64,000 nucleotides of DNA from SAR324 cluster bacterium (GCA_028282885.1 JANQGX010000032.1:86439-150438), one strand, 5' to 3'. Shown: positions 21,814 to 63,773, counted from the stretch's first letter. Notes: a model not told the origin generated them from the sequence alone. Translations and numbers: made by a program.

Positions 21814-21914
21814 AAGCAAACCATTTGTTACTACTGTTCCGAACCAGCCTGGCCGGGAAGCCTGGCCCTGCTGCAATGAAGAGCAGTCAACCCTTAACCC
21901 GAAAAGGAGAAACC

Positions 21915-22424
21915 ATGGATCTCGGAGAAGCTATCAAAACAGCAATTGCGCTGGAAGACAAGATCGTTAACGTCTACACCAAGTACGCAGATAAGTTCAG
22001 CTCACCCGTTGCCAGCAAGATTTTCAAACTGCTGGGCGAAGAGGAAGAAGGCCATACCGCCTATTTAAAGGCGAAACTTGAGCAGTGGCAAAACTCGGGA
22101 AAGATTACCGTTGATGACATCAAAACCATTGTTCCCGACAAAGAGGTGATCAAGGAAAATGTTAAAAAACACAAAGCCGCGGCAAAACAGGCCAACATTG
22201 ATGACGAAATTGAAGTCTTCAAAAAGGCGTTGGAGATGGAAAGCCAAGCTTCGGCTTTTTACAAGGATCTTGTAGGTAAGCTGGCACCTGAAGACCAGGT
22301 TTTGTTCAAACGTTTTATCGAAATTGAAGAGGGACACGAAGCCATTGTCAAAGCCGAAATCGACAATGCACGAGGTTTCGGATTCTGGTTCGATTTTCAG
22401 GAATTTGATCTGGAAAGTGCATAG
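21915..22424 (+). CDS. rubrerythrin/ferritin-like diiron-carboxylate protein (paralog 1)
   Basis: Start at ATG 21915 (AAAAGGAGA RBS); two-repeat E...ExxH architecture (EEEGH; EEGHEAIV); paralogous to 26162..26677 and 28408..28884. Confidence 0.65.
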   Translation: MDLGEAIKTAIALEDKIVNVYTKYADKFSSPVASKIFKLLGEEEEGHTAYLKAKLEQWQNSGKITVDDIKTIVPDKEVIKENVKKHKAAAKQANIDDEIEVFKKALEMESQASAFYKDLVGKLAPEDQVLFKRFIEIEEGHEAIVKAEIDNARGFGFWFDFQEFDLESA

Positions 22425-22522: not shown

Positions 22523-23035
22523 ATGCTTACAGAAAAAATGGAAGCCAAGCTGAACGAGCATATTAATGCCGAACTCTATTCAGCTTATCTGTATCTATCC
22601 ATGTCGGCTTATTTCAAGTCGATTGATCTGCCCGGTTTTGTCAACTGGATGCAAGTACAATTCGAAGAAGAAATGTCCCATGCGATGAAATTCTTTGAGT
22701 TTGTTGATAATATGAACGGTAGAATTCGCCTGGCGACTATCCAGGCGCCGCCTGTGGAATGGGAGTCTCCCGTTGAAGTCTTTCAGGAGACCTATGATCA
22801 TGAGCGTTCGGTCTCCGAACAGATCTTTAAGCTGGTGAGCCTGTCGCTGGAAGAAAATGACCATGCCACCAATAACTTCCTGCAATGGTTTGTTGCAGAG
22901 CAGGTCGAAGAGGAATCATCGGTGAAATCAATCCTCAGTAAGCTGAAATTTATCGGGGATTCCAAGTCAGGACTCTTCATGGTGGACCAGGAGCTGGCCA
23001 AACGGACCGTCTCAACGGACACGGCACCTGTGTAA
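22523..23035 (+). CDS. ftnA: non-heme ferritin
   Basis: 170 aa with classic Ftn ferroxidase-centre residues (...NAELYSAYLYLSMSAY...EEEMSHAMKFFEF...QETYDHE...). Confidence 0.85.
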   Translation: MLTEKMEAKLNEHINAELYSAYLYLSMSAYFKSIDLPGFVNWMQVQFEEEMSHAMKFFEFVDNMNGRIRLATIQAPPVEWESPVEVFQETYDHERSVSEQIFKLVSLSLEENDHATNNFLQWFVAEQVEEESSVKSILSKLKFIGDSKSGLFMVDQELAKRTVSTDTAPV

Positions 23036-26161: not shown

Positions 26162-26677
26162 CTAACCATCCAGCAGGGATTTTTCGGAACTCATCATCCA
26201 GCCTTCCGGATCTTCAAAGTAGAGCAGGGTGTTTTCCAGCGACGCCACGTGTTTGTGTTCAACGGCAGCCATATATTCGAAAAACTTTTTCTCATCCGGA
26301 TCTTCGGTTTTTTTGATCAGATCCTTGTAAAAGAGATGGGCTTTGGTTTCGAAATCGATGGCAATCTGCACTGCTTCCCTGTCATCGGTCGTTGATTTGG
26401 CGGCTCCCTCGGCGGATGCAATCATCTCTTTCAATCCTTCCTTGATATCGGTTTCATCCACAACAGGTGATATCTCCTCCGGCCATTCCCCCCTCTCTTC
26501 AAGGTTTTTGTGAATCTTCAGCAACTGCTCATAGTGCATGTCCTCTTCTTTGGCGATGGTTTCGAACATTTTTTTTCCAACCGGATTGGTCACCTTCTTG
26601 CTCAATGTGGTATAGTAATCCTTCTCTTCTTTTTCATTGTTTAATGCTACCTCGATAGCTTTTAAACTTGGCTTCAT
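26162..26677 (-). CDS. rubrerythrin/ferritin-like diiron-carboxylate protein (paralog 2)
   Basis: 171 aa; two E...ExxH repeats (EEDMH; EHKH); paralog of 21915..22424 and 28408..28884. Confidence 0.65.
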   Translation of the reverse strand: MKPSLKAIEVALNNEKEEKDYYTTLSKKVTNPVGKKMFETIAKEEDMHYEQLLKIHKNLEERGEWPEEISPVVDETDIKEGLKEMIASAEGAAKSTTDDREAVQIAIDFETKAHLFYKDLIKKTEDPDEKKFFEYMAAVEHKHVASLENTLLYFEDPEGWMMSSEKSLLDG

Positions 26678-27540: not shown

Positions 27541-28098
27541 GTGTTTATGAAAAAATGGGTATGTTCAGTATGTGGTTATGTTCATGATGGTGATAACCCG
27601 CCGGAGGAGTGTCCGCAATGTAAGGCCAGCTCGGATAAGTTTTACGAGCAACAGGCAGGTGATCTCGCATGGGCAGATGAACACAGGATTGGTGTGGCAG
27701 CGAAGGATATTGATCCTGAGGTTCTGGATGGATTAAGGGCGAATTTTACGGGTGAATGCACGGAAGTTGGGATGTACCTTGCCATGAGCCGTCAGGCGGA
27801 TCGGGAAGGGTATCCGGAGGTTGCAGAAGCCTACAAGCGTATAGCCTGGGAGGAGGCTGAGCACGCATCCAAGTTTGCGGAGTTATTGGGCGAAGTGGTT
27901 GTAGCCGACACCAAAGCCAATCTCAAGGCAAGAGTTGAAGCTGAGCACGGTGCCTGCAAAGGCAAAAAGGATTTGGCAACCAAAGCCAAGCAGCTCAACT
28001 ATGATGCCATCCACGACACCGTTCACGAAATGTGCAAAGACGAAGCCCGACATGGTGCTGCCTTTGCCGGATTGCTCAAGCGATACTTCGGTGAATAG
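27541..28098 (+). CDS. rbr: reverse rubrerythrin (N-terminal rubredoxin-like domain + diiron ferritin-like domain)
   Basis: N-terminal CSVCGY...CPQCKA FeCys4 knuckles followed by rubrerythrin diiron domain ([16 protein letters not shown]...EEAEHASKF...; [12 protein letters not shown]...CKDEARHG). Confidence 0.85.
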
Positions 28099-40930: not shown

Positions 40931-40943
40931 ATCAAATCAAGAC

Positions 40944-41012
40944 ACAGGGGTGGCATAACGCCTGAGATCAGACCCTTTGAACCTGACCCGGATAATACCG
41001 GTGTAGGGAACA
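40944..41012 (+). promoter_or_regulatory. TPP (thiamine pyrophosphate) riboswitch aptamer
   Basis: ACAGGGGUGGC...GCCUGAGAUCAGACCCUUUGAACCUGACCCGGAUAAUACCGGUGUAGGGAACAGC matches THI-box conserved core (GGGGUG, CUGAGA, ACCCUUUGAACCUGAUCUGGAUAAUGCCAGCGUAGGGAA) in plus orientation. Confidence 0.75.
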
Positions 41013-41563
41013 GCTTCTTTTTTGGCCTCTTCTCACTGCTTCCGTTCATTCCTGTCTTTTTCAAGTCATACCAAATTCTGTATACAATTGCTGTTTATCC
41101 AATGCATTGATCGTCGTAGCCGGTTTTTTGTTGGGCCATTTTCCGCCTCCTGATTCTCCCGGCAGATGTGGTTACGTCCAATCTGCCGGGAGCAGAAATC
41201 CTTTCAGAAAAAAAACCAACCGGAGACAGCTAGGTCGAAGACATGGCCGGTTCCCTGTTAAACGGTGGATTCAGTCAGTCAACAGTCACGTTTGCATCAG
41301 GTCCATGAGGGCAGTTCATTCTCCTTGGTGCTTAAAAAGAAATCGAGCCTGGTTCGGGAAAAGTTTAGTCCCGAAAATTTATGAATTTTTAAAGATACCT
41401 GACATGATGGTGTCAAAGATCCCTTTTATAGTATTAGGACAATCTTTTCCGAATCAAATCGGGATAGCTGATTGGCGGTCAAGCAGTTTATTGATTTGAC
41501 ACTGTTTCATTTATTTGTAATGACTGATGAATATAAAACGCAACACCTGAAGGGAGATTGATC

Positions 41564-41917
41564 ATGAAAGAGATAGTTGCCGACAAAGCTTTGGTGGCCT
41601 ATTGCGGACTGTATTGCGGAGCTTGCAGAAAATATCGCGTTGGAAAATGCCCGGGATGTCATGAAAATGAAAAAGCATCCTGGTGCAAAGTGAGATCCTG
41701 TTGCGTGGAAAATGGACATACGAGTTGTGCGGATTGTCATCAGTACGATGATATCATGGAGTGCAAGGGATTCAATAATTTCATCTCCAGGATCTTCTCC
41801 CTGGTTTTCAATTCGAACCGGGAATCCTGCATCAAACGCATTGGTGAAGCAGGGCTGGAAACCTTCGCGAGTGAAATGGCCCAAAAGGGCATGATGTCCC
41901 ATAAACGAAAACCTTAA
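41564..41917 (+). CDS. DUF3795-like cysteine-rich protein
   Basis: 117 aa with YCGLYCGACRKYRVGKCPGCHE...CKVRSCCVENGHTSCADC Cys-rich pattern; AGGGAG RBS before ATG 41564. Confidence 0.5.
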   Translation: MKEIVADKALVAYCGLYCGACRKYRVGKCPGCHENEKASWCKVRSCCVENGHTSCADCHQYDDIMECKGFNNFISRIFSLVFNSNRESCIKRIGEAGLETFASEMAQKGMMSHKRKP

Positions 41918-44679: not shown

Positions 44680-45576
44680 TCAGGATTTTGTCAGTGCAGA
44701 TTTCAGGGATTCGGGATAATCCGGCTGGGCGCCGGGTATGGTAGCTGTGTACGAGCCGAAAGAGTTGGCGATGCGAACGGCCTCTGCGGATGGGATTCCA
44801 AGGAATCTTGCCACGGCGTAACTTCCCACAAAAGCATCCCCGGCTCCGGTTGTATCGACCGGTGTGATAGCCGTGGTGGGAATTTCGGTTGAAATGCCTT
44901 TTTCCAAAATCTCTGCTCCGGCCTTGCCTTTGGTCAGAATGACTGTTTCGATATCCAAAGTTCCTCCCAGGTCTTCAAAGGAATGAATTTCAAAATTCCT
45001 CTGCAAGGCGTCACATTCGGTCTCATTGACAACCAGGGTGTGAACTCCGGCAAACACTTCCCTGGCAAAAGCTGTGAAAGGGGCGAGATTGAAGACTACT
45101 TTGATGTCACGAGACTTTAACCAGTCGATAATGCGGGCGGTTTCCTTCGGATCCAGCTCTGCTTGTAAGACTGCCATATCCCCGGGATTAAAGAGATCCG
45201 AAAACCCGGTGACTGATTCCAGGGTGAGGCATTTGTTAGCCCCCGAGTGAACGACAATGCTGTTCTCACCTTCATCATTAACCTGGATGTAAGCTGCACC
45301 GGTCGGTTGGTCGTTGATTTCCGCAATGGTTGCCTGATCAAAACCGCCCTGTGCAAGTTTGGTCCTGATCAGTTCGGCATCCTGATCTGCGCCGATAGCA
45401 GAAACAAAGCGCGTTTCGGTCAGCAATTGCCTGCAGGTAACCGCCTGGTTGAAGCCCTTACCCCCGGTGTACTTTGCCAGGGAATCCGCGATTATTGTCT
45501 CGCCGGGCATAGCGATGGATGGGGTTCTCAGGACATAGTCAACGTTGGAACTGCCGATAATCCATAATGTGGTCAT
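44680..45576 (-). CDS. rbsK: ribokinase (PfkB family)
   Basis: N-terminal GSSNVDY...GGKGFNQAV and C-terminal GAGDAFVGSYA motifs of ribokinase. Confidence 0.8.
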   Translation of the reverse strand: MTTLWIIGSSNVDYVLRTPSIAMPGETIIADSLAKYTGGKGFNQAVTCRQLLTETRFVSAIGADQDAELIRTKLAQGGFDQATIAEINDQPTGAAYIQVNDEGENSIVVHSGANKCLTLESVTGFSDLFNPGDMAVLQAELDPKETARIIDWLKSRDIKVVFNLAPFTAFAREVFAGVHTLVVNETECDALQRNFEIHSFEDLGGTLDIETVILTKGKAGAEILEKGISTEIPTTAITPVDTTGAGDAFVGSYAVARFLGIPSAEAVRIANSFGSYTATIPGAQPDYPESLKSALTKS

Positions 45577-45591
45577 TACATTTCTCCCGGA

Positions 45592-46230
45592 TTAAAGATT
45601 CAGCAGAATCGTGTTTCGGGTGGAGATAATATGTTCCCGCATCTTTTTTTCCGCGGCTTCTTCATCCCGGTCTAAAATCGCTTTGCAGATATCCCTGTGC
45701 TCCCTGCCCATGATGGGATATCGGCCCGGTATCGTATTGGCAATCTCCCTTTCCTGTCTCAGGATGGTTTTGTAGTTGGACAGAATCTGTGAAATACGAA
45801 CGTTACCGCTGGATTCAACAAGTTGGTCGTGAAATTCGTCACTAAGCTGATTGATGACTGCCGCATCGGTGATTTCGCCTTCGGCAATTTTGCCGAACTG
45901 ATCATGAAAGAACTCAAATTTCTCAACCGGGAACTGTCTTCCCGCTGTTTTTCTGGCTGCCAGTCCCTCCAGCATTTCGCGAATTTCAAAGAAATCCTTT
46001 ATGTTTTGCAGGCTGATGTTGGCGACAATAACACCACGATGGGGGATCCGTTCCAGTAGCCCTTCGGTTTCAAGCCGGTTAATGACTTCCCTCACCGGTG
46101 TGCGACTGATGTTCAGCTTAGCCGCAAGTTCCCCTTCCACAAGGGCTTCCCCCGGTTTAAAGGTGCCATCCATGATCCATTCGGAGATTTTTTCGTAAGC
46201 CTCATCGCTGAGGGGTTTCTTTTTAGCCAT
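45592..46230 (-). CDS. GntR-family transcriptional regulator (FadR/FCD subfamily)
   Basis: N-terminal wHTH (GELAAKLNISRTPVREVINRLETEGLL) and C-terminal FCD domain; 15 nt upstream of ribokinase gene. Confidence 0.85.
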   Translation of the reverse strand: MAKKKPLSDEAYEKISEWIMDGTFKPGEALVEGELAAKLNISRTPVREVINRLETEGLLERIPHRGVIVANISLQNIKDFFEIREMLEGLAARKTAGRQFPVEKFEFFHDQFGKIAEGEITDAAVINQLSDEFHDQLVESSGNVRISQILSNYKTILRQEREIANTIPGRYPIMGREHRDICKAILDRDEEAAEKKMREHIISTRNTILLNL

Positions 46231-46395
46231 AAATTGTTCCGGAGGTGAACATTGTTACGCCGGGTTGACGACAATCATCTATAGATATTAGGTGTCACCG
46301 GATGCGTCAACACGTATCTGAAAGGTCGCCGCGTTTTGTGTTTTAAGGATCTCATTCTACATTACCCGCTCTCCCTGGTAAATGGCGAGAGTTCT

Positions 46396-47121
46396 CTAGC
46401 CGGCTTTACTATTGATTACCAGTGGTGTGGCTGCGCTTTTAAACCTCTCAATCTCTTCGGGTTCGATGGGCAGTACAAACTCTACCAACCCCATGAATTC
46501 ACCGTTTTCATACCAGGGCGACTGGTAACAGAAAATCCCGCTGTCCGGGTGACTTTTGGGTTTGTATCTCAGGTAGGAATGGGTTTTCTGCTCGGATAAG
46601 AGCTTTCTGATAATCTCCTGGGTTGAAGCTTGATGGCATTGAATGCCGTTTTTACCGATTACCTCTTCTCCACCTGCATATTCGAAGGCTTTAATCGCCT
46701 CGTCGTTCAAACCGACGATGGTACCATCCTTGGCCATAACCGAAACCTCTGCCGGAAAATCCTTGACCCATCGGACCAGGGGTGGGAGCTCAACAGTCAT
46801 TGGGGTTTTAAATCCGTCTTCCGCTCGATCCAATTGGCTGATATGTCTAATGGCCTGTTGATTGATAGCTCCGTAAATCCTGGGGACCTCTTGATCCGAG
46901 TCGGGACATCGTTCGACCTTCATCTCTGCAGACAGTTTCCCGGGATCAATACAGAGCAGACAGGGTTCATCCTTTGCCCCGTATAGTCGGTTGGTTCTCT
47001 CCATAACCTGGTAGGAAAAACTGCAGGGGATAAATCCGTCGGTTTTTAATTCGGCAGGAGCAAAGGTTCCTTCCCGGCGATTAGAAATGTAATCCTCAAA
47101 CAGGCAGATGTAATATATCAT
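46396..47121 (-). CDS. DUF952 domain protein with C-terminal PAS-like domain
   Basis: N-terminus MIYYICLFEDYIS...DGFIPCSFSYQ typical of DUF952; C-terminal ~120 aa PAS-like. Confidence 0.5.
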   Translation of the reverse strand: MIYYICLFEDYISNRREGTFAPAELKTDGFIPCSFSYQVMERTNRLYGAKDEPCLLCIDPGKLSAEMKVERCPDSDQEVPRIYGAINQQAIRHISQLDRAEDGFKTPMTVELPPLVRWVKDFPAEVSVMAKDGTIVGLNDEAIKAFEYAGGEEVIGKNGIQCHQASTQEIIRKLLSEQKTHSYLRYKPKSHPDSGIFCYQSPWYENGEFMGLVEFVLPIEPEEIERFKSAATPLVINSKAG

Positions 47122-47400
47122 TATGGTTCCTTTAGATAACTGAAATGTAATTGTTTAGCTGATGTTCTTCGAAATACCAAAGATGTTGAGTTTTTGGATT
47201 CCTGTAAGCGAGAGACGGCCTTATGGAGTTCCTGATCCAAATCTCACCAGTTACAGGTGGATTCACGTGCTTCCGGAAAGCAACAGCTTTGCGTGATTAC
47301 CAGCATTCTATTACGTTAAAACAAAACTATTCAAGTTAAAAACTTCCGGGAGCACTGACCCATTGCGCAGGAACGATCGGACATTGATGCAGTTCCTTCG

Positions 47401-48255
47401 TTAACCCCGCTCCAGACAATCGATTAGCTGATCGATGTGAACGATTTTTTTATTCAATCCCAACCGGCCGGCCAAAATCGAAACCGGTAGTTGTTTGATG
47501 GCGCTTTTTTCCAGGATCTCAAAATTCCAGAAGATCTCGCTGCAAGTGTCATCCGCAATGATCTTCTTATCCGTCATGACAACCACCCGCTCGAAGTTTT
47601 CAGCCACAAATTCCATGTCGTGGGTAATGGTCACTACGGTCTTGCCCCGTTTCAGCAGTTCCAATATGATGCTTCTCTGTCGTTCCAGACCGACAAGATC
47701 CTGACCTGCGGTGGGTTCATCCAGGATAATATACTTGGCGCCCATGGCAATCACCGAGGCGATGGTTACGAATTTCCTTAAGGAAAAGGGTAGATCGTAG
47801 GGATTCAGTTTCAGATCATCGGTCACCCCGCAGAGTTCTGCCGCATCCATGACCTTCTCTTCCACTTCGCTCTCCGGCAGCTTACGATAGCGCAAAGTAT
47901 AAGCAATTTCGTCAAATACGGTACGATTGAAGATTTGATCTCCCGGATTCTGGAAAACATAGCCCACCTTCTTTGAAAGCTGGGCGACGGTCTGGTCGGA
48001 AGTGTTCTCTCCATCTACCAAAATGGTTCCTTGCTGCGGTCGCAGTAACCCGTTGAACATTTTGACGAAAGTGGTTTTTCCGGCACCGTTCTGCCCGACA
48101 ATGGCAATATTCTCACCACTATCGATCTGCAGTGAAACATCGTCTACAGCCAGAAAACCGTTTTCATAGGAGAAGCTGACATTGCTGATTTTAATTCCTT
48201 CCATCACTCGCCTCCTCCTGAAGCAGTTCCTTAAATACCGAAACCGCATTGTCAA
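47401..48255 (-). CDS. ECF transporter ATPase component (EcfA2-like)
   Basis: Walker A GQNGAGKTT, signature/Walker B present; likely start at internal MEGIKISNV (~48204). Confidence 0.85.
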   Translation of the reverse strand: MTMRFRYLRNCFRRRRVMEGIKISNVSFSYENGFLAVDDVSLQIDSGENIAIVGQNGAGKTTFVKMFNGLLRPQQGTILVDGENTSDQTVAQLSKKVGYVFQNPGDQIFNRTVFDEIAYTLRYRKLPESEVEEKVMDAAELCGVTDDLKLNPYDLPFSLRKFVTIASVIAMGAKYIILDEPTAGQDLVGLERQRSIILELLKRGKTVVTITHDMEFVAENFERVVVMTDKKIIADDTCSEIFWNFEILEKSAIKQLPVSILAGRLGLNKKIVHIDQLIDCLERG

Positions 48256-49063
48256 TGGTGGTGGGAATTCTTTTCAGCTTTTTCCCCGTTCTTTTTTCAT
48301 ACGCAAGCCCCACCTTGGCTATCTGCGGCAAGTTCACACCATGGTTCGGCACGGCTTCATTGGTCAGTACATTTTCAGTCTTATCGTCAAAGATAATTCG
48401 TTTATCATCCAGTAAAATCACCCGATTGGCATATTCACTGATCAGATCCATTTTGTGTTCGACCAGGATAATGGTCTTGTTCTTCTCCTTGAGTAATCTG
48501 ATAATTTCAAAGACCTTTTCTGTTCCCTGCGGATCCAGTTGGGAAGTCGGTTCATCTATGATGAGGATGTCGGGATCCATCACCAGGACTGATGCCAGGG
48601 CAATTCTCTGCCTCTGACCTCCTGAAAGATCGATGGGGTGCTTGTCTGCCAATTCAGAGATCTTGAGTTCTTCCAGAATAGAGGTAACCCGCGGTATAAT
48701 CTCATCTCTTTCAATTCCAAGGTTTTCAAGACCGTAAGCCACTTCATTGAACACGGTTTTCTTGACCCCGCTGACCTGTATGAAAGGATTCTGAAAGACA
48801 AACCCGATTTTTATGGCAATTTCGCCCATGGACATCTCATCGATATTCCTGCCTTCGACAAAGACCTCTCCTTGGAACTTGCCTTTATGAAACCCTGGAA
48901 TAAACCCCCTCAGGATATTGCAGAGAGTTGTTTTTCCGCTGCCGTTCCTGCCGATAACAGCGACAAAATCCCCCCTGTCCACTGTCAATGAAATATCTTC
49001 CAAAACCGTGGATTTACCGATGGGGTATCGGTAGCTGACATTTCTCACTTCCAGGGCTTTCAT
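48191..49063 (-). CDS. ECF transporter ATPase component (EcfA1-like)
   Basis: Walker A GRNGSGKTT, LSGGQRQR, Walker B ILIIDEPTSQLD. Confidence 0.85.
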   Translation of the reverse strand: MKALEVRNVSYRYPIGKSTVLEDISLTVDRGDFVAVIGRNGSGKTTLCNILRGFIPGFHKGKFQGEVFVEGRNIDEMSMGEIAIKIGFVFQNPFIQVSGVKKTVFNEVAYGLENLGIERDEIIPRVTSILEELKISELADKHPIDLSGGQRQRIALASVLVMDPDILIIDEPTSQLDPQGTEKVFEIIRLLKEKNKTIILVEHKMDLISEYANRVILLDDKRIIFDDKTENVLTNEAVPNHGVNLPQIAKVGLAYEKRTGKKLKRIPTTIDNAVSVFKELLQEEASDGRN

Positions 49064-49833
49064 AGAATAAACCTCCAGATTAAAAAGAGGACAAAGCCCA
49101 GGATTGCCAGGCCGATCACAATCTTGTCCCGGGAGGCCATGTTAATCTCTTTCAGGTGAGTCTTCTTGACCTCAACGGAAAATGCCCTCGCCTCCATGGT
49201 AATCACCTTGTCTTCAATATCGGCAATGGATGAAATGATCAGCGGTGTCAGCGTTGGTAAAAAGGCCTTGAGCCGCACCAGCAAATTACCTTCAGTCTCG
49301 ATTCCCCTGGCTCGCTGTGCCTGCATGATGGTCTTGCTCTTTTTGATGAAATCGGGGATCATCTGCAAGGTCGATAAAAACACGTATGAACCGATATGTG
49401 AAATCCCCACCTTTTGCAGCGATATCATGAAATCCTCGATATCCGTGGTCTCAAAAAAGAGCAGAATCGTTCCACCGGCAACAAGAATAATAGACGTCAG
49501 GCTCAGTGCATCGGCCAGTCCCTGCTCATAAATCTTCAGGATTCCCCACCTCCACAACACTGTTTCCGAGGGAACCAGGCAGGCCTTGATCAAAAAGATA
49601 AACAGGAACATGATGACGATGGCACTGACCAGCTTTTTCGCATAGGGAACGAACTGTCCCTCCAGAAGCGCCAGAATCAGCAGACAGGGAAACACCACAA
49701 AGTAGCCGAACCGAAAATCCCCGGCAATAAAGGCCGAAAGACAGACGAAGAAGACAACAGTTAATTTTGTCATCGGGTAAAGGCCCGATAAAACTCCCTT
49801 CCTATTCATTACCTGACACTCCTTGTTATACAA
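49060..49833 (-). CDS. ECF transporter transmembrane component (EcfT/CbiQ family)
   Basis: ~250-aa 5-6 TM protein with CbiQ-like conserved ARxxRG region (QAQRARGIETEG). Confidence 0.8.
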   Translation of the reverse strand: MYNKECQVMNRKGVLSGLYPMTKLTVVFFVCLSAFIAGDFRFGYFVVFPCLLILALLEGQFVPYAKKLVSAIVIMFLFIFLIKACLVPSETVLWRWGILKIYEQGLADALSLTSIILVAGGTILLFFETTDIEDFMISLQKVGISHIGSYVFLSTLQMIPDFIKKSKTIMQAQRARGIETEGNLLVRLKAFLPTLTPLIISSIADIEDKVITMEARAFSVEVKKTHLKEINMASRDKIVIGLAILGFVLFLIWRFIL

Positions 49834-49869
49834 CCGGGAGCAAACATCGCTCCCGGCTGATGAAGATCC

Positions 49870-50454
49870 CTAGGCTGCTTCCTCAACATATCGGGAACCC
49901 AGGTTGAACTTGATCAATGTGCTTTCCGGGATTCGTTTAATAACGAAATAGACGATGAAGGTCGCCAGCAATTTATCAACGGTCTCAACAATAATACTCT
50001 GACTGAAAACAGCTTCCCAGATTCCCTTACCGGATGCCAGGAAAAAGGAGGTGATAACGGAAGAACCGCCACCTGCCGTTCCACCGAACAGGATGACAGT
50101 CATGGGAACCGCGGTTACCTGCACAATGGCCCAGATCAGGATACTGGTTACGACAGTCATCTTGAAGGTGGTAAACCAGCCTTTTCTGGCACAAAGACCG
50201 GCCACGATACCAACAGCAATGTTAACAACCGCAAAAGGTATCAAAACGGGGTTTCCAATACCGGTAATCAGGTTGGTCACCAATCCGACCAAAGCGCCAC
50301 CGATTGGGCCTGTTAAAGCACCTGCCAGAATCGTCCCGATGACGTCCAGATAGAGCGGCAGTTTCAAAAGGGTTACAATATAGCCCCCGACCACGTTTAC
50401 GGCAATACAGATCGGAATCAGCAGTGTTGTCATCATTCCCAGTTTTTTCAGCAT
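49870..50454 (-). CDS. ECF transporter substrate-specific (S) component, substrate unknown
   Basis: 194-aa 6-TM protein; start placed at ATG 50454 with GAGGAG RBS (ORF-track TTG 50469 upstream is probably non-coding); first gene of S-T-A-A' operon. Confidence 0.6.
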   Translation of the reverse strand: MLKKLGMMTTLLIPICIAVNVVGGYIVTLLKLPLYLDVIGTILAGALTGPIGGALVGLVTNLITGIGNPVLIPFAVVNIAVGIVAGLCARKGWFTTFKMTVVTSILIWAIVQVTAVPMTVILFGGTAGGGSSVITSFFLASGKGIWEAVFSQSIIVETVDKLLATFIVYFVIKRIPESTLIKFNLGSRYVEEAA

Positions 50455-50489
50455 CTCTCTTCTCCTCAAAAAATTAACATTCGAAAAAG

Positions 50490-50509
50490 TGTCAATTCCA
50501 CAATTGACA
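50490..50509. promoter_or_regulatory. perfect palindrome TGTCAATT-ccac-AATTGACA (candidate operator) upstream of ECF operon
   Basis: 8-bp arms, 4-nt spacer, 36-55 nt upstream of S-component start; GT-N14-AC pattern compatible with GntR/FadR-type sites. Confidence 0.35.
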
Positions 50510-50698
50510 AACTCTCCTTACAAAACGCCGGAGAACGGCGTGCAACCAACGCCGAAATGAAGAACGGTTCGCATTCCCACCCCGCACCGTTTCGGCGGAC
50601 TAAAAGCAATCGAAATCATGTTCAAACCAACCTGCTTGCCATTGAGCATGATCCCGATTGCTTGAGAACTGCTACGGGCTTTGAGCGACTCCCGCCCG

Positions 50699-51694
50699 TC
50701 AGCTTCTTACAAACTTTCGATACAGGTCGACCACATCTCCAAAAACAATCTCAATAAACAACTCCTTGAACCTGCGACTATCGGCATTCATAACGACATA
50801 AGCATTTTTGGTGAAATTGAATCGGTCGACCAGGTCTACAATGGTCTGCCCCTGTGTCAAACCGGGTTCGCAACAGACCGTCAAAGCGCTTCGATAGACA
50901 TCTTCCGGTTTACTGATACCAGGATCGATGGCATAGATAATGGGCACCAGGTCGTGTATCACCGCCCCGGTTATTCGTCGGTTCGACCAATAGGACCCGG
51001 CGTAGGCCAGGGTCATGTCATACATGATCCGCCCGATCTCTCCTCCTTCCTGTCTCAGAAAAAAGAGATCGTTCATAGTGAAAAACGTGTTGTAGGTAAC
51101 ATCGAGGCCAAACATGTAAATATCAACATCAGTGCCGATACCGTACATCACTTCCACTGCTTCGGGATCGAACCAGTAGTTGAACTCGGATACCGGCGTC
51201 ATGTTGCCCCGATGAACACCACCTCCCATGGACCAGATGGTTTTAACCGTTTTCATTACCTCCGGTTCCTTCCTGATCGCCAGGGCGATATTGGTCACCG
51301 GGCCGATAGCCAGAATCTCGACTTTCCCGGGGTTCTGTCTGACCGTGTCAATGATAAAATCAACAGCATGCGTATCCGATCGGGTTGCTTCATCAAAGGA
51401 GAGGTCTACATCACCCAAGCCGTCTGATCCGTGGGTGTTGCCGGCGTCCTTTAACTCGCCTGTAGCACTCTCAAGATCCTTCAGGGAGGCAATGGAGCCC
51501 GGGTAAACCTTACAATCCGCTCTCATCAACCTGATCAGCTTCATGGCATTCACAGTCACATATTCCAAACTTTTATTGCCGGCAACGGTGGTTATGCCCT
51601 TGACCTCAAACTGTGATGAACTCAGCGCGGTGATGATGGCAAACGCGTCATCAACCCCGGGATCGGTGTCTATAATCAGTTTTCTTCTCTTCAT
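50699..51694 (-). CDS. inosine-uridine-preferring nucleoside hydrolase family protein
   Basis: N-terminal IIDTDPGVDDAFAI aspartate cluster (Ca2+ site) and overall IU-NH fold length (331 aa). Confidence 0.85.
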   Translation of the reverse strand: MKRRKLIIDTDPGVDDAFAIITALSSSQFEVKGITTVAGNKSLEYVTVNAMKLIRLMRADCKVYPGSIASLKDLESATGELKDAGNTHGSDGLGDVDLSFDEATRSDTHAVDFIIDTVRQNPGKVEILAIGPVTNIALAIRKEPEVMKTVKTIWSMGGGVHRGNMTPVSEFNYWFDPEAVEVMYGIGTDVDIYMFGLDVTYNTFFTMNDLFFLRQEGGEIGRIMYDMTLAYAGSYWSNRRITGAVIHDLVPIIYAIDPGISKPEDVYRSALTVCCEPGLTQGQTIVDLVDRFNFTKNAYVVMNADSRRFKELFIEIVFGDVVDLYRKFVRS

Positions 51695-52203
51695 AACGCC
51701 CCTGAATAGGTAGACTTGTTGTCTTATTCAAAAAATATACGGATTGTATACAGTAAATATCCAGCTCATGTCAAGGCTTTCCAATTTTCTTGTATAAGCC
51801 TTTGAAATATTGAAAAATTGCACTGAAAATCAGCAGGGAAATTCTCTAATTTGCCGGAATTTATCAGAGATCGTGCATTGAAATCACCCGAACTCCCGAT
51901 TTTGATTACAGGTAATCTTGATTCGAGTTGCCAACAGGAGTTGAAAAAAGCAGGGAGCAAACAGGGAACAGATATGAATTCAGATGGTTAAATTGAAATC
52001 GAATCACTCCCATAATTTTTGCCTACTATTGTCAATGATTGATCCGCATCTATAAACCCGGGAGAAGGAGACGCTGAAATTGACTCAACAAATACCGAGA
52101 GTCCAATTGACCTGTCATACTATCGGGACCAGATGCGATAAATCCAACCTTAACCGTAATCATAGAATCGGAGAAGAAAACCTTAGCATTTCACGGAGGG
52201 ATT

Positions 52204-53823
52204 GTGACCCTTGACATCAAGACACTGATGATCTGCAACGTCATCATCGCCTTGTTTTTCTGTATGGCTTTCTCGTTTTACATGGTGGGTCGGAAAACCC
52301 AGGCCGGATTTCGTTTATGGACCGTCGGCATCCTCTTTCACGCTCTCGGATTCCTGTTTTTGGTTATGCGCGGTACAATCCCCACCGGCCTTAGCATTTT
52401 GCTAGCCAACGGATTAATTATCCTGTCCGTTGTCTTAAGGCTGGACGCCATTTACCGGCTTGTCGGTAATAAAACCCTGGCAAAGTCCATCTACCTGGTT
52501 CCTTTGGTTGTCTGCCTGGTCTGCTTCTATTTTTATCGGTTTATCGACCACATCGGCGTCCGCAGTCTGGTTGTCAGTATCACCCTCTTTTTACTGGCTC
52601 TTGCTTTTGCCAGAAAACTGATCCAAAAGCGCTCTCCGCGAAATCGATATCTCTATTATTTTGCTGCGGGATTTATCCTGATCAGGGGATCGAGTCTGAT
52701 GATCAGGGCTCTGGACTGTTTGGTTCATCCGGAGATAAACATTTTTACAGCGGGACCGCGACATTCGACGCATTTTCTGATCGCTTTAATAGCCGAGGTC
52801 GGAATTAACATCATTTTTCTAATGATGAATATGCAACAGGCGGAAGAGGAGTTGTACCGGGTACACGTCAAGATGGCGGAGAACCATGACGAATTGAGAC
52901 GCCTTTCCATGACCGATACCCTTACAGGGCTTTTGAATCGAAGGGCCGCGATGCCGATCATCAACAGGGAGATGGAAAGAACCAACCGTTTTGGTCAACC
53001 GGTGAGTCTGATCATCCTGGATATCGATCATTTCAAAAAGGTGAACGATACCTGTGGACACGATGTAGGGGACAAGGTTTTGGTCGGCTTTTCCGATCTT
53101 GTCAGGGAGAATTGCCGGAAAATCGATTCCGTGTCCCGCTGGGGTGGAGAAGAGTTTGTCATCATCGCCAGTCACACCAATGCTGACAATGCCGCGATCC
53201 AGGCGGAGAAAATTCGTCGGACGATAATGAACCGCCGGTTTGACAAGATTGGCACCGTCACTATCAGTGCCGGGATCTCGACTTACCACCCACGCGAGTC
53301 ATTTGAAGAGTGGTTCAAACGGGCAGACGAGGCCCTGTACATGGCCAAGGAAAACGGTCGTAATCGAGTGGATATCCATCCCCTGGATCGGGTAACAGAG
53401 AAGTCAATGGATACCATTCAACAGGTTTTCAGTATCAACTGGCAAGAGGAGTTCAGTTCAGGGAACGACCTGATTGACGCCCAGCACAGGGGCCTGATTA
53501 AACAGTCGAACCTGATCATTGATGCGATCATGAACAATAGTGAGACCGCGATTCTCAAAAGCGAGCTTGATAAACTCCTGAGTCTGACCTTAAGGCATTT
53601 CCAGGATGAGGAAAAGATCCTGCGTGATCATCAATTTTCGCTACTGGACAGTCATGCGGAGGAGCATCGAAGATTTACGGAAGAACTGCAACAAAACATC
53701 CGCCGCTTTTCTGAAGATGACTTGGATGCGTATCACCTTCTGAGATTTGTCTGCCACGATCTCGTGATCGGCCATATGATTAACAAGGACAAATCCTACC
53801 ACTATTGTCTGAACATGAATTGA
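52204..53823 (+). CDS. membrane diguanylate cyclase (GGDEF) with C-terminal hemerythrin-like domain
   Basis: N-terminal ~200 aa multi-TM; GGDEF domain with active site RWGGEEFVII; C-terminal ~130 aa with hemerythrin H/E ligand pattern (HR...H...HF...E...H...H). Confidence 0.8.
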   Translation: MTLDIKTLMICNVIIALFFCMAFSFYMVGRKTQAGFRLWTVGILFHALGFLFLVMRGTIPTGLSILLANGLIILSVVLRLDAIYRLVGNKTLAKSIYLVPLVVCLVCFYFYRFIDHIGVRSLVVSITLFLLALAFARKLIQKRSPRNRYLYYFAAGFILIRGSSLMIRALDCLVHPEINIFTAGPRHSTHFLIALIAEVGINIIFLMMNMQQAEEELYRVHVKMAENHDELRRLSMTDTLTGLLNRRAAMPIINREMERTNRFGQPVSLIILDIDHFKKVNDTCGHDVGDKVLVGFSDLVRENCRKIDSVSRWGGEEFVIIASHTNADNAAIQAEKIRRTIMNRRFDKIGTVTISAGISTYHPRESFEEWFKRADEALYMAKENGRNRVDIHPLDRVTEKSMDTIQQVFSINWQEEFSSGNDLIDAQHRGLIKQSNLIIDAIMNNSETAILKSELDKLLSLTLRHFQDEEKILRDHQFSLLDSHAEEHRRFTEELQQNIRRFSEDDLDAYHLLRFVCHDLVIGHMINKDKSYHYCLNMN

Positions 53824-59357: not shown

Positions 59358-59630
59358 TTGTTTGGACTATTGGTTTTCAGGTCGGTTTTTGAATTGTTTT
59401 GGATAAACCGATAATCAATCAAATGCCAGGGGTGATTATCCATTTGGATCAGGCTTCATGGTACAGGAAAAGCTCCAGAACCTCAAAAGGTATTTACAGG
59501 AGCTTTCCTGCTCGGGATTGCTAAGATTTTGGGGGCAATTTCTAATTAAAATGTCAACAGAAAATGCAGCCCTTCCTACTGCAGTAGAAGCCACACATAA
59601 AGGTCAGAATAATAATGATTCTTTTATCTG

Positions 59631-62256
59631 GTCTCATTCCACGCTCCCGCGGGGGGAGTGACGAGTTATCATTCTGGAAAACCATTCAGCAAGCGGAGTT
59701 TCAATCCACGCTCCCGCGGGGGGAGCGACCCAGGCCCATATGGCGAGAGTTGGTATTTATGGAGTTTCAATCCACGCTCCAGCGGGGGGAGCGACGCCGT
59801 CTTATCGCCTCAATCGAAGTATTGTCATAGTTTCAATCCACGCTCCAGCGGGGGGAGCGACGATCTGTTGGAAAAAATTAAATATACCCAGCGAGGCTTC
59901 AATCCACGCTCCCGCGGGGGGAGTGACGCGTCTGCAATCTTTTGTTCGTCGATTTCATACCAGTTTCAATCCACGCTCCAGCGGGGGGAGCGACTCAATA
60001 GCAATGCGTATTTCCAGAGCTGCTAAAGTTTCAATCCACGCTCCCGCGGGGGGAGCGACAAACTTTTGATGATGAATCGACTGTCCAGGGCTGTTTCAAT
60101 CCACGCTCCAGCGGGGGGAGCGACTTCATCGGAGGGGATGATTTTCTCTTTGGAGTCATAGTTTCAATCCACGCTCCCGCGGGGGGAGCGACTTTTGGGC
60201 GCAACGGTATTTTTACCAAACACTTATTGTTTCAATCCACGCTCCCGCGGGGGGAGCGACTGATTTTCGATTAACCGGCGCTTCAGCAGGGTCTTGTTTC
60301 AATCCACGCTCCCGCGGGGGGAGCGACCACTGATACTGAGGGGGTTTTCACTTTCACCGAAGTTTCAATCCACGCTCCCGCGGGGGGAGCGACGAGGTAA
60401 GGTGGAGATTGTATCAATCAGCTGATTGTGTTTCAATCCACGCTCCCGCGGGGGGAGCGACGAAGTTGATCGGGAAAGACTGCAATTCGGTCAACTGTTT
60501 CAATCCACGCTCCCGCGGGGGGAGCGACTGTCAGTTCCCTACAGCATAGGGAAATCAAAGAAGTTTCAATCCACGCTCCCGCGGGGGGAGCGACTTATGT
60601 TCAATCCAGCGGGAGCGATGATGTCAACTGTTTCAATCCACGCTCCCGCGGGGGGAGCGACCCGAGATCGGAAAGACAATCTTGATCGTTTCATAGTTTC
60701 AATCCACGCTCCCGCGGGGGGAGCGACCACCGTTGCTCCTATTACAGCAAATGATCAAATTTAGTTTCAATCCACGCTCCCGCGGGGGGAGCGACGGATT
60801 ACTTTATTTCTTCATGCTCGATTTTTTCAAGTTTCAATCCACGCTCCCGCGGGGGGAGCGACCACTCATAACAATGGTATCTGGAAATGATGAAATAGTT
60901 TCAATCCACGCTCCCGCGGGGGGAGCGACGAGTTTGCTTCCTTGAGCGCCCCATCTATCTTGATGTTTCAATCCACGCTCCCGCGGGGGGAGCGACGAAG
61001 TAGGATTCAGAGACTTTAGCCGGATCAGTGGGTTTCAATCCACGCTCCCGCGGGGGGAGCGACATCACATAGCCTTTCTTGATATACATTCCAGGTGTGT
61101 TTCAATCCACGCTCCCGCGGGGGGAGCGACGAAACTGGATGCCAGGGACTTGTGGTTTGGAATGTTTCAATCCACGCTCCCGCGGGGGGAGCGACATGGA
61201 AGATAAAATCGTTGAACTAACCCCCGAAGTTTCAATCCACGCTCCCGCGGGGGGAGCGACACGATTGCCCCATTAAACAGTCTGACTATCCTATCGTTTC
61301 AATCCACGCTCCCGCGGGGGGAGCGACTTGGTGTAATTCTGGATTATCCATTCCATTAATGGTTTCAATCCACGCTCCCGCGGGGGGAGCGACGTTCAGG
61401 ATGCCAATCTTTCCGCTCATGTTTATAGTTTCAATCCACGCTCCCGCGGGGGGAGCGACCGAATTTCAGCCGATCCTGTTCATTGCAGATGAGTTTCAAT
61501 CCACGCTCCCGCGGGGGGAGCGACTAAACATAGAGATCATCAAGAACGGCAATTAAAAGTTTCAATCCACGCTCCCGCGGGGGGAGCGACGCAAGCTTCA
61601 AAAAGGCCCATGCTTCAAAGACGGAGTTTCAATCCACGCTCCCGCGGGGGGAGCGACTTTTAAACATATTCCGAGACGTTCTCAAATTAATGTTTCAATC
61701 CACGCTCCCGCGGGGGGAGCGACACTTCCTTGATATTTATCATCTCTCCTTCGACGTCGTTTCAATCCACGCTCCCGCGGGGGGAGCGACCCTCTGTTCA
61801 GGGCTCCGGAAGCTTCGAAATATTGTTTCAATCCACGCTCCCGCGGGGGGAGCGACACTGAAATATTCTGTTGAAAAGCCATTGTTGGATAGTTTCAATC
61901 CACGCTCCCGCGGGGGGAGCGACGCAAAAAATGCAAAACTGCAGTTTCAAAAAAATGGTTTCAATCCACGCTCCCGCGGGGGGAGCGACCATCAAAGAAA
62001 CGCTCTTCTTTGTGATATCCAGTGTTTCAATCCACGCTCCCGCGGGGGGAGCGACTTTTTCTGCTTCGGGTATTTGCGGGCAATAGCGGTGTTTCAATCC
62101 ACGCTCCCGCGGGGGGAGCGACTCGCTGTCTCTTGCGACTGAAAGCGAACCTAGAACTGTTTCAATCCACGCTCCCGCGGGGGGAGCGACTCCAGGTAGA
62201 ATCGAGTATTATCACCGCTGTATCGTTTCAATCCACGCTCCCGCGGGGGGAGCGAC
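59631..62256 (-). CRISPR. type I-C CRISPR array, 40 repeats / 39 spacers
   Basis: 32-bp repeat, plus-strand form GTTTCAATCCACGCTCCCGCGGGGGGAGCGAC = reverse complement of I-C-type GTCGCTCCCCCCGCGGGAGCGTGGATTGAAAC; spacers 33-36 nt; degenerate/variant repeats (GTCTCATTCC..., ...CCAGCGG..., ...GAGTGAC) cluster at low-coordinate (leader-distal) end. Confidence 0.95.
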
Positions 62257-62445
62257 TGTAGCGGTATTAAAGTTAGATTTTTCAATCCATTAAGCTACTT
62301 GTACCGCTAACCACTGTTTTCTTCGTTAAACAAGAAAACGTATTTTTTATCAAATCAATGAAAATCATTATTTTAATCAAATATTTCAGAATGATACTGT
62401 ACTGCGCTAATCCAACGGCAACTTCTTATGAACTTAGGGGTAGCG
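62257..62445 (-). promoter_or_regulatory. CRISPR leader (AT-rich) between cas2 and array
   Basis: AT-rich 189-bp segment adjacent to newest repeat; contains a truncated repeat remnant TTTCAATCCA at ~62277..62289. Confidence 0.5.
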
Positions 62446-62751
62446 CTATACGATTATTGGATCATCGGGAGAAGAAACTGCTTTAGCTCCGAAATGTTCA
62501 ACCCTGCGTTTCCAATTTGAACCAAGGTAGTAGAAACGAAGTGAATCCTCTTCGGGGTAATAGGTGCTCAACAAACGAGCTTTCAATTTTTCCCATTGTC
62601 CCGGATCGACATTACACTCGAAGACTGAATACTGAACACGTTGTCCAAAATCCAGACAGTGTTTGGCAATTCGCCTCAGTCTTCGTTCTCCGTCTCTCTC
62701 AATTGTTGCCACGTCATAAGATACAAGAACCAGCATTTGAATCATCTCCAA
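62446..62751 (-). CDS. cas2: CRISPR-associated endoribonuclease Cas2
   Basis: 101 aa, MLVLVSYDV... Cas2 N-terminal motif; overlaps cas1 end. Confidence 0.9.
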   Translation of the reverse strand: MEMIQMLVLVSYDVATIERDGERRLRRIAKHCLDFGQRVQYSVFECNVDPGQWEKLKARLLSTYYPEEDSLRFYYLGSNWKRRVEHFGAKAVSSPDDPIIV

Positions 62752-63773
62752 ATAAAAGCAGGATAATAGTCCAGATCACCTCTGATATGTCTTGATAGCA
62801 GTATGGTTTGTACATGGAATAGCAGTCCGATCTTGATCTTTTCCTTCAAAATCGGATGGTTAAGTGTTTCCTGTTTTCGCTTCTGGTAGGCTGTGAGCAA
62901 TGTTTTCCTTGCTGTGTCAGACATTAACACAGCTCCGTTTTCAGTATTCTTAAAATCGCTAATCTTCAGTTGCTGAAGATTGATGAGGCTTAGAGCAAGG
63001 CGATCCCCAAGAAAAGCCCTGAACTCTTCCAGCAGATCCAAAGCCAGACTTTGTCGGCCGGGGCGGTCTCTATGTAGAAAACCAACATAAGGATCTAATC
63101 CCACACCTTCCAGCGCAGAAACGCAATCTTGTAACATAATGGCGTAAATGAATGAAAGAAGGGCATTTACCGGATCTCTCGGAGGTCTTCTGTTTCTTCC
63201 TGCAAATTTAAAATCATCCTTTTGCTGTGTAATCAGATTTTGAAAATTCTTAAAATAGCAGTTGGCAGCTTCACCTTCTCTACCACGAAGAGAATCAAGA
63301 TCCGCTATGTTCTGAACTTTTCCAAGTGTTCTTTTTAATTCCGCGACGGCGATTTTGAGATCTGTAGCTCCGGCACATTCAGGATTATTACGCAACATTC
63401 TCTGGAATACCGTCCGGCTGTTAGAGATTTTTGAAGCTACTATGAACCGGGATATACTTGTCGATTTAACGGGGTCATCAGCCCATCGGTATTGCTCCCT
63501 TCTCAACAGCACGTTACCGGTTTGAGGTCCCTGAATCCTTGCCTGGAATCGACCATATTCACTGAAATGAGCTATACCAATGCCGTTCTGGCTGCAGGCA
63601 AGCATCAGTTGAGGTGAAAGCGATATCCTTCCGAGACAGAAGATATTGGATAAGGTCAATAGAGGAAGCTGCAGTGCTTTTTTTCTTTCAATCTCCACAA
63701 CCACGGTTTCCCGATCTTTATGGAGGTATGCTCCTTCTGTAGTTACAAAGAGTGTATTCAGTAGTTTCTTCAA
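62742..63773 (-). CDS. cas1: CRISPR-associated endonuclease Cas1 (type I-C)
   Basis: 343 aa, MKKLLNTLFVTTEGAYL... typical Cas1 N-terminus and conserved acidic residues; TTG start overlapping cas4 stop. Confidence 0.9.
   Translation of the reverse strand: MKKLLNTLFVTTEGAYLHKDRETVVVEIERKKALQLPLLTLSNIFCLGRISLSPQLMLACSQNGIGIAHFSEYGRFQARIQGPQTGNVLLRREQYRWADDPVKSTSISRFIVASKISNSRTVFQRMLRNNPECAGATDLKIAVAELKRTLGKVQNIADLDSLRGREGEAANCYFKNFQNLITQQKDDFKFAGRNRRPPRDPVNALLSFIYAIMLQDCVSALEGVGLDPYVGFLHRDRPGRQSLALDLLEEFRAFLGDRLALSLINLQQLKISDFKNTENGAVLMSDTARKTLLTAYQKRKQETLNHPILKEKIKIGLLFHVQTILLSRHIRGDLDYYPAFIWR

Follow-up and report, generated by a model that had tools for sequence, protein, structure and literature searches.

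A dedicated ECF transporter beside a nucleoside hydrolase in a SAR324 cluster bacterium: a candidate locus for nucleoside import and salvage

Introduction

What does an energy-coupling factor (ECF) transporter import when its genes follow one for a nucleoside hydrolase (NH)? The question is raised by a 64 kb stretch of DNA from a SAR324 cluster bacterium (GCA_028282885.1, JANQGX010000032.1:86439-150438; hereafter the window, with positions counted from its first nucleotide), in which an NH gene is followed on the minus strand by genes for an ECF S component (S), the coupling component EcfT (T), and two ATPases, EcfA (A) and EcfA' (A'). A preliminary description of the window had read this arrangement, together with a nearby kinase and regulator, as a nucleoside or queuosine salvage locus. 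We report here that the S component belongs to a family whose genes are coupled, across many genomes, to those of nucleoside-cleaving enzymes, and we consider it probable that the transporter is an importer of nucleosides coupled to their hydrolysis and to the use of the ribose.

Nucleoside-cleaving enzymes accompany the transporter in related genomes

A scan of GTDB species genomes yielded 80 related loci, in which open reading frames (ORFs) were called and clustered and the clusters were named through Pfam and NCBIfam. Neighbors were counted within 8 kb, and a locus was treated as fully flanked if each of its sides extended for 4 kb or more (n = 62). In about 70 of the 80 loci, a T-A-A' set of its own comes after the S gene. 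An IU-type NH is present in 60 and a phosphorylase of the PNP/Udp family in 32; one or the other of these enzymes is found in 71 loci, and in 59 of the 62 that are fully flanked, a result that upholds the preliminary description where it had proposed genome context in relatives as a check. A LacI regulator, for which RbsR is the best model, occurs in 32 loci and a ribokinase-like PfkB kinase in 27. The linkage is far beyond chance, and the association of the S family with genes for nucleoside-cleaving enzymes is conserved.

The order of the genes around the transporter is not. Bacillaceae and Planococcaceae have LacI-NH-S-T-A-A'-RbsK, Paenibacillus has Mga-DeoD-S-T-A-A'-NH-NH, and other Bacillota have LacI-S-T-A-A'-PNP-YjjI-YjjW. 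Clostridia, Erysipelotrichia and spirochaetes carry a Crp/CD3072-like gene and then S-T-A-A'-MFS-Udp-TenA-NH-unknown, and the short form S-T-A-A'-NH is found both in Finegoldia and in a more distant relative from E. raffinosus. Among the relatives, S follows NH at a median distance of 22 nt and RbsK follows A' at 3 nt; where NH comes after A', the median is -4 nt. These gaps are operon-like, and in most relatives the NH and ECF genes are clearly co-operonic. The linkage of NH to the transporter therefore outlasts repeated rearrangement, which is a classic mark of functional coupling.

The closest relatives of the window locus (L001 and L002) share the order LacI-(RbsK)-NH-S-T-A-A'-MFS. Their S components are 78-80% identical to that of the window and their NHs 68-70% identical to the window NH. 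In Paenibacillus, two NHs together with a purine phosphorylase of the DeoD type, which scores above its model cut-off, look like a gene set for general use of purine and pyrimidine nucleosides.

The S family has many members. When its profile was searched against 1.84 billion cluster representatives, 230 were returned at E <= 1e-30 and 1931 at E <= 1e-10, and the window clade comprises at least 230 clusters (50% identity, E up to 1e-30), mainly from Bacillota and Spirochaetota. Single loci of the clade are labeled Chloroflexota, Actinomycetota, Thermobaculum, and Bacteroides.

One homologue lies outside the Bacteria. A Haladaptatus plasmid (L088, 6905-9800) encodes a solitary haloarchaeal S homologue with 44% identity. 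Two nucleoside 2-deoxyribosyltransferase genes lie about 1.3 kb away on the other strand, separated from the S gene by one for an IclR regulator; this neighborhood indicates that the association with nucleosides reaches the Archaea.

The window encodes a dedicated group I ECF system

Gene identities in the window were taken from an ORF listing combined with Pfam and NCBIfam searches, with the starts of S, EcfT, and EcfA' placed as in public gene calls for identical metagenome contigs. The NH gene (50699-51694) encodes a 331-residue, cytoplasmic enzyme of the IU type, group I and His-type (PF01156, 269 bits). After exactly 244 nt, counted from the NH stop to the ATG of S at 50454, it is followed by the gene for a 194-residue S component of an uncharacterized family (49870-50454; PF12822, 27.6 bits; NF045596, 130 bits), and then by the genes for EcfT, the transmembrane coupling component (49060-49809; PF02361 CbiQ, 74.8 bits), EcfA (48191-49063; TIGR04520 ECF_ATPase_1, 232 bits, and PF00005), and EcfA' (47401-48204; TIGR04521 ECF_ATPase_2, 207 bits, and PF00005). 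All of these genes, like those described next, are on the minus strand. With 60 nt between S and EcfT and overlaps of 4 nt between EcfT and EcfA and 14 nt between EcfA and EcfA', S-T-A-A' is a compact unit.

Past EcfA' on the same strand, at distances of 1.2 and 1.8 kb, lie genes for a GntR/FCD regulator (45592-46230; PF00392 and PF07729) and for a ribokinase-like PfkB kinase (44680-45576; best model TIGR02152, 227 bits). Only 15 nt separate these two genes, which probably form a two-gene operon. The interval between the transporter and this pair holds a gene for a DUF952 protein with a PAS-like region (46396-47121; PF06108, 49.5 bits; the PAS match is weak). The protein has no tblastn match in the 80 related loci, and it is doubtful that the gene is part of the module. 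Beyond the kinase the minus strand continues with an AraC/GyrI regulator and a MATE pump, both of which look unrelated.

These assignments agree with the preliminary description in its account of the NH gene, the 244-nt gap, S, T, and the two EcfA genes. It had further inferred a dedicated ECF system from the S-first order and the tight overlaps, and the transporter is indeed a dedicated group I ECF system, with T-A-A' genes of its own. Its ribokinase and GntR regulator some 2 kb away on the same strand are placed about right (1.2-1.8 kb), with the amendment that the kinase is only ribokinase-like: its 227 bits fall below the TIGR02152 equivalog cut-off of 299.65 bits, although ribokinase is still the best model. 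The kinases of two relatives, L001 and L009, pass that cut-off, with 331 bits.

The S component has the ECF fold and fits no family with a defined substrate

An AlphaFold2 model of the S component, built with 24 homologues, has a pLDDT of 82 and a pTM of 0.80. The top 18 matches found by Foldseek in the PDB are all ECF S components (RibU, FolT, ThiT, BioY, and PanT), with probabilities of 0.77-1.00 (at least 0.95 in 14 of the 18) and target-normalized TM scores of 0.45-0.70. The model thus predicts the six-helix fold of ECF S components, and a profile of the S family matches FolT chains in the PDB at E = 4e-7. One tryptophan of the S component, W151, shows 92% conservation. As a guide to the ligand the fold search was set aside, since it gives the fold class and cannot indicate what is bound. 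Gene fusions were likewise rejected as a clue to substrate: the longer S homologues are S-T fusions, which are uninformative in this respect and agree with a dedicated module.

At the level of sequence families, the generic PF12822 score of 27.6 bits is below the gathering score of 30.7. The FolT family gives a faint match (E = 0.009), the riboflavin S model is matched by 1 of 24 relatives (E = 7e-4), and the BioY, ThiT, and QueT models do not match the window S component even at E up to 10. Classification into a vitamin family such as BioY, ThiT, or RibU, set beforehand as the outcome that would speak against nucleoside salvage, is therefore not what the Pfam and NCBIfam models give, and as far as these models discriminate, the window S component fits no substrate-defined family. 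Its close homologues in databases carry only the generic name 'ECF transporter S component'.

The sole strong match is to NF045596, 'CD3073 family putative ECF transporter S component', at full length with 130.4 bits and E = 5e-38, below the equivalog cut-off of 180 bits. All 24 aligned relatives match this model as well, the best of them with an E value of only 9e-42, well short of the cut-off. In a neighbor-joining tree of S components, the window S groups with those of L001, L002, and Finegoldia inside a large clade of dedicated modules, and the CD3073 members (L085, L086, and L090) form a clade of their own.

The nucleoside hydrolase and the kinase

The best NCBIfam models for the window NH are RihC, UriH, and RihA, all scoring below their cut-offs, and the protein is 30-36% identical to RihA, RihB, and IU-NH enzymes of solved structure. 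A metal-binding motif of the DXDXXXDD pattern, DTDPGVDD, occupies residues 9-16, and a histidine aligns with the catalytic His239 of YeiK. Because the catalytic motif begins at residue 9, the enzyme has no room for a signal peptide. At the position of Gln227 in the pyrimidine-specific YeiK, the window NH has a tyrosine. Non-specific IU-NHs likewise have a tyrosine there, and this residue may be read as a weak hint of broad specificity. The window NH falls with those of L001, L002, and L004 in a small, distinct subclade.

In the kinase, the stretches GSSNVDY, GGKGFNQAV, and DTTGAGDAF are readable and resemble what we take to be the ribokinase motifs (an N/D pair, GGKG-NQ, and DTTGAGD). The next homologue in order after the nearest one that has a readable context (P0131, 49% identity) is encoded in an overlapping NH-PfkB gene pair (L095), which ties the lineage of the window kinase to nucleoside hydrolysis.

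Regulatory features and transcript structure

Upstream of the NH gene, a promoter-like TTGACA-18 nt-TATACA element can be read at 51745-51774 on the minus strand as a match to consensus, and a promoter scan gives an overlapping, weaker site (51763-51734). Within the spacer between NH and S, a 17-bp hairpin followed by UUUU resembles a terminator or attenuator (50604-50663, minus strand). A second short GC hairpin is also present, and the 244-nt spacer as a whole folds at -87.8 kcal/mol (z = -2.95 relative to shuffled sequences). No convincing promoter was found between the hairpin and S. With such features, NH may be transcribed in part separately from the ECF genes in this organism. The corresponding spacers of L001 and L002 are shorter. 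A conserved RNA element in the spacer was considered and dropped, because the spacer does not align with those of L001, L002, and L004.

A perfect 8+8 palindrome, TGTCAATT-N4-AATTGACA (50490-50509, no strand assigned), lying some 35 nt before the start codon of S, is a candidate operator. Allowing up to 3 mismatches, it is unique in the window apart from two chance matches in coding regions. An operator shared by the NH, ECF, and GntR-kinase promoters was accordingly rejected, with no regulon definable from a site that occurs once. Some 140 nt before the NH start codon, an AATT-N4-AATT repeat is weakly similar to the palindrome and unconvincing.

The pairing of a GntR/FCD regulator with the kinase is specific to this lineage; the relatives have RbsR-like LacI, Crp, or Mga-type regulators. 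Regulation among the relatives is thus protein-based and resembles that of sugar catabolism, in contrast to the riboswitch control that is usual for vitamin ECF systems.

A model for nucleoside import, hydrolysis, and ribose use

We infer that the substrate of the transporter is a ribonucleoside and that the kinase acts on the ribose released from it. In the sequence of events that we envisage, the S component would bind a ribonucleoside at the outer face of the membrane and topple within the EcfT scaffold, and ATP hydrolysis by EcfA and EcfA' would reset the transport cycle as the nucleoside enters the cell. Toppling of the S component and an ATP-driven reset are established for the ECF class. 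The cytoplasmic NH would then split the N-glycosidic bond to give base and ribose, and the ribokinase-like PfkB kinase, under the control of the GntR/FCD regulator, would trap the sugar as ribose-5-phosphate. The ribose phosphate could feed the pentose-phosphate pathway or the supply of phosphoribosyl pyrophosphate, and the base could enter salvage.

The company that these transporters keep also bears on the scale of the process. With ribokinase, RbsR-like repressors, and DeoD and Udp phosphorylases as partners, bulk catabolism or salvage fits better than salvage of a micronutrient. Within the window subclade the partners are a plain ribokinase and a repressor of the RbsR type, for which reason a single modified nucleoside is a less likely substrate there than canonical nucleosides.

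Several points weigh against this model. The substrate assignment is drawn wholly from genomic association, and ECF transporters are classically high-affinity importers of micronutrients, for which a bulk catabolic role would be unusual. In the window itself, the 244-nt spacer with its terminator-like hairpin separates NH from S, and a 279-nt gap together with the unrelated-looking DUF952-PAS gene lies between the transporter and the GntR-kinase pair. As noted above, the kinase falls short of the ribokinase cut-off, and its nearest homologue, at 70% identity, is the product of a stand-alone gene. Finally, some subclades of the family add a CD3072-type TudS-related desulfidase, a TenA-like protein, or YjjI and YjjW, and these extra partners are a hint of specialized or modified substrates rather than plain nucleosides.

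Similar catabolic logic is found in transport systems of other classes. RnsBACD, NupABC-BmpA, and the Bacteroides ribose-utilization systems (RUS; bioRxiv 10.1101/574913) are alike in combining nucleoside uptake with cleavage by an NH, a ribokinase, and a sugar-type repressor. These systems rely on a type I or II ABC transporter with a solute-binding protein, or on SusC/D, whereas the window encodes an ECF transporter with a membrane-embedded S component, and the specificity subunits are unrelated in sequence. Full-text searches of the literature gave no description of an ECF-type nucleoside transporter or of the window operon. The transporter class and the logic of import followed by hydrolysis are known, and what is new is the distinct S clade, its dedicated energizing module, its different regulation, and the predicted role in nucleoside catabolism or bulk salvage.

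A broader proposal can be made, although we advance it only tentatively and regard it as possible rather than probable. The window clade may be the main route of nucleoside uptake feeding catabolism by NH or PNP and ribokinase, and as such the first ECF transporters to serve carbon and energy supply or bulk salvage and not the uptake of a vitamin or metal. The superfamily as a whole, comprising this clade, QrtT, and CD3073, may then be a general lineage for nucleosides and nucleobase derivatives, with branches for queuosine, for thio- or seleno-nucleosides, and for canonical nucleosides. If true, this would widen the substrate range and physiological role of the ECF class, whose members are pursued as antibacterial targets. 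It would fill an annotation gap in nucleoside transport in the many Bacillota that have operons of NH or PNP and ribokinase without a recognized nucleoside permease, and it would call for caution in spreading 'queuosine transporter' labels over the QrtT-like superfamily in models of micronutrient sharing in microbiomes. A test would be inexpensive, since this operon is also present in culturable Lysinibacillus, Psychrobacillus, Paenibacillus, and Finegoldia.

Could the substrate be a modified riboside?

We considered how the same arrangement might serve the salvage of a modified or non-canonical riboside, whether thiolated, methylated, or otherwise derived from tRNA or rRNA, or a cofactor precursor such as nicotinamide riboside, with the NH tuned to that compound. 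ECF systems are typically high-affinity scavengers, as such a role would demand, and the window NH does sit in its own small subclade. The subclades with additional partners point in the same direction: a bona fide CD3072-family gene, scoring 167 bits where the cut-off is 130, is present in 16 main-clade loci, frequently alongside genes for a TenA-like protein and a 400-residue protein, and YjjI and YjjW occur in others. For the window, however, these partners are missing. No gene for a TudS-like protein, TenA, or PNP was found in the window, nor was a LacI gene, and a tblastn search of the window with CD3072-family proteins gave no match. The closest relatives also lack specialized partners and have a plain ribokinase and an RbsR-like repressor instead, and the Paenibacillus gene set looks like general nucleoside use. 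Salvage of a single specialized riboside is therefore unlikely in our estimate, while remaining the most serious competitor of canonical nucleoside import.

The true members of the CD3073 family provide a point of comparison. Found in E. gilvus, Cetobacterium, and Acetoanaerobium, they always have a CD3072-family TudS-related putative desulfidase (NF045597) as partner, at 6522-7564 in L085, 6959-8040 in L086, and 6282-7513 in L090, and the E. gilvus pair lies directly after selD-yedF-selB-selA. This setting suggests that the pair acts in the metabolism of selenium- or sulfur-modified bases or nucleosides, and the constant association of CD3073 with the desulfidase, beside selenium genes in E. 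gilvus, counts in favor of modified ribosides as substrates. The window S component resembles this family in matching NF045596, and some loci of its clade adjoin genuine CD3072-family genes. It differs in scoring below the 180-bit cut-off, in belonging to a separate clade, and in having no CD3072-like gene in the window. In the literature searched, CD3073 occurs only as a column header.

Further gene content was noted in particular subclades. A set of clostridial and spirochaete operons (L023, L026, L029, L060, L072, L076, L079, and others) add a TenA-like protein (TIGR04306, 109 bits, below cut-off), an MFS permease, and a Udp-like phosphorylase, along with a conserved 400-residue protein that has no Pfam match and a faint likeness to sulfoquinovose isomerase. 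In L044, L055, L056, L057, L058, L063, and L077, genes for the glycyl-radical enzyme YjjI (PF11230, 686 bits) and its radical-SAM activase YjjW lie downstream of S-T-A-A'-PNP. In E. coli, yjjI and yjjW are presumably neighbors of the deo operon; the context hints at a nucleoside- or pentose-related role for the orphan enzyme YjjI. In four Bacillaceae loci (L071, L078, L080, and L062), the module lies amid genes for a deaminase-like amidohydrolase, BtpA, an Asp/Glu/hydantoin racemase, a DUF1537-type acid-sugar kinase, and a class II aldolase, surroundings that suggest a longer catabolic pathway.

Comparison with queuosine salvage

The preliminary description had likened the locus to those for queuosine salvage. 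By this account, a QrtT-type S component would take up queuosine or queuine precursors, and a QueK-type NH would hydrolyze queuosine to release queuine. The architecture does parallel that of the C. difficile genes queK-qrtT-queL, which are preceded by a preQ1 riboswitch and use a shared ECF core (PMC11477304; PMC11130926). In both cases a gene for an IU-family NH stands beside one for an S component of the same PF12822-type superfamily, and import is followed by cytoplasmic hydrolysis (PMC11477304; PMC11130926). Uptake of preQ1, queuine, and queuosine has been reported for one C. difficile QrtT, an indication that specificity within the superfamily can be broad. In a supplementary table of PMC11130926, CD3073 appears as 'QrtT_CD3073', so that, by that table, the family named nearest to the window S component has been treated as QrtT-like.

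The two systems differ in organization and regulation. S components of the QueK-QrtT type are solitary (group II) and share EcfTAA', whereas the window S component has its own T-A-A'; the former have a preQ1-I riboswitch and, in C. difficile, the radical-SAM lyase QueL, whereas the window locus has a ribokinase-type partner, no riboswitch, and no QueL-like gene that we could see. Rfam searches gave no preQ1 or other riboswitch at the locus, whether the entire window was scanned at the gathering threshold or positions 46000-52400 at E up to 5, and Rfam found none in nine diverse relatives. A relaxed regular expression for preQ1-I, applied to all 93 sequences collected, matched nothing beyond the two positive controls. 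Neither tgt nor any que gene, queA included, was detected among 52 window proteins scanned with Pfam, which leaves the check for tgt proposed in the preliminary description with a negative result. These proteins represent every non-nested ORF of at least 150 residues except six (6153-6677, 16222-16803, 21825-22424, 22523-23035, 26162-26677, and 27541-28098), all of which are too short for tgt. A QueL-like radical SAM enzyme was not seen among the window proteins, in an inspection made without a QueL reference sequence for comparison.

For a comparison at the level of the proteins, labeled relatives of the window S component were collected by tblastn against annotated plasmid and chromid records. 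Among nine plasmid-borne homologues examined with Rfam, preQ1 elements were found only at two NH-S pairs from Enterococcus and Lacticaseibacillus (L089 and L091). These solitary pairs, from E. faecalis and an L. paracasei plasmid, each have a preQ1-I riboswitch immediately upstream, and they serve here as stand-ins for C. difficile QueK-QrtT (CD1682/CD1683), just as members labeled by PGAP stand in for CD3073. The window S component is homologous to the preQ1-linked S components, with 34-38% identity. In the neighbor-joining tree, however, the preQ1-linked pair forms a separate, outlying clade, and the window S component has no Pfam QueT match, contrary to one of the classifications that had been anticipated for it. 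Judged on these preQ1-linked proxies, the evidence points to an S component that is not orthologous to QrtT.

The NH was compared with the same proxies. The two preQ1-linked NHs are 53% identical to each other, and the window NH is 33-34% identical to them, no more than it is to other, unrelated NHs in the set; the QueK subgroup of NHs has been set apart in the literature by sequence-similarity networks with a starting threshold of 40% identity. In addition, ribokinase, RbsR-like repressors, and DeoD or Udp phosphorylases would be needless for salvage of a micronutrient at nanomolar levels. We therefore regard queuosine salvage as improbable for this locus. By the tests applied, with proxies for CD1682/CD1683, the window locus appears to work like QueK-QrtT without being a member of that group. 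Of the salvage locus put forward in the preliminary description, the logic of import, hydrolysis, and phosphorylation is the explanation that we favor, with synteny conserved through rearrangement as strong backing for the link of the transporter to the NH and to a ribokinase-like kinase, and the queuosine flavor is not supported, given that no preQ1 riboswitch, tgt, or que gene was detected in the window and that the S component falls in a clade apart from the preQ1-linked proxies.

A second queuosine-related name also applies to transporters of this kind. QrtTUVW, a 'queuosine-regulated' group I ECF transporter, is a prediction of Rodionov et al. (2009) as cited in PMC6593275. It resembles the window locus in having a dedicated S-T-A-A' set with an S component of the same superfamily. 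The prediction of a group I system reportedly drew its link to queuosine from preQ1 riboswitches, and the label is said to have been propagated by SEED. The Salmonella S-T-A-A' cluster between epd and tkt (L084), which we take to be the type example of QrtTUVW in SEED annotation, has neither a preQ1 riboswitch nor an NH gene, and its S component branches outside the window clade in the neighbor-joining tree.

The remaining alternative, that the neighborhood is coincidental, with the ECF system importing an unrelated micronutrient and the NH and GntR-kinase pair independent of it, could draw on the long NH-S spacer with its hairpin, the gap and DUF952-PAS gene before the GntR-kinase pair, and the single occurrence of the candidate operator, but it is very improbable: NH genes are few per genome, so that chance adjacency would be expected at about 1%, and an NH or PNP gene lies beside the transporter in nearly all fully flanked loci, in at least four gene orders, and in Bacillota, spirochaetes, and Chloroflexota-like and actinobacterial metagenome-assembled genomes.

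Other features of the window

Divergent from the NH gene, across an intergenic region of 509 nt, lies a plus-strand gene for a GGDEF diguanylate cyclase with a C-terminal hemerythrin domain (52204-53823). A thiamine pyrophosphate (TPP) riboswitch, scoring 61 bits and above its gathering score, is located at 40936-41026 on the plus strand with no obvious thiamine gene downstream; the plus-strand ORFs that come after it encode a 130-residue product of odd composition (41107-41499) and a 119-residue Cys-rich protein (41558-41917). A CRISPR array at 59628-62300 contains about 40 repeats with the core GTTTCAATCCACGCTCCCGCGGGGGGAGCGAC and a period of 65-68 nt. The array adjoins cas1 (PF01867, 345 bits) and an ORF of 101 residues in the position of cas2, the two spanning 62446-63773, and the array accounts for a bump in GC content at 60-62 kb.

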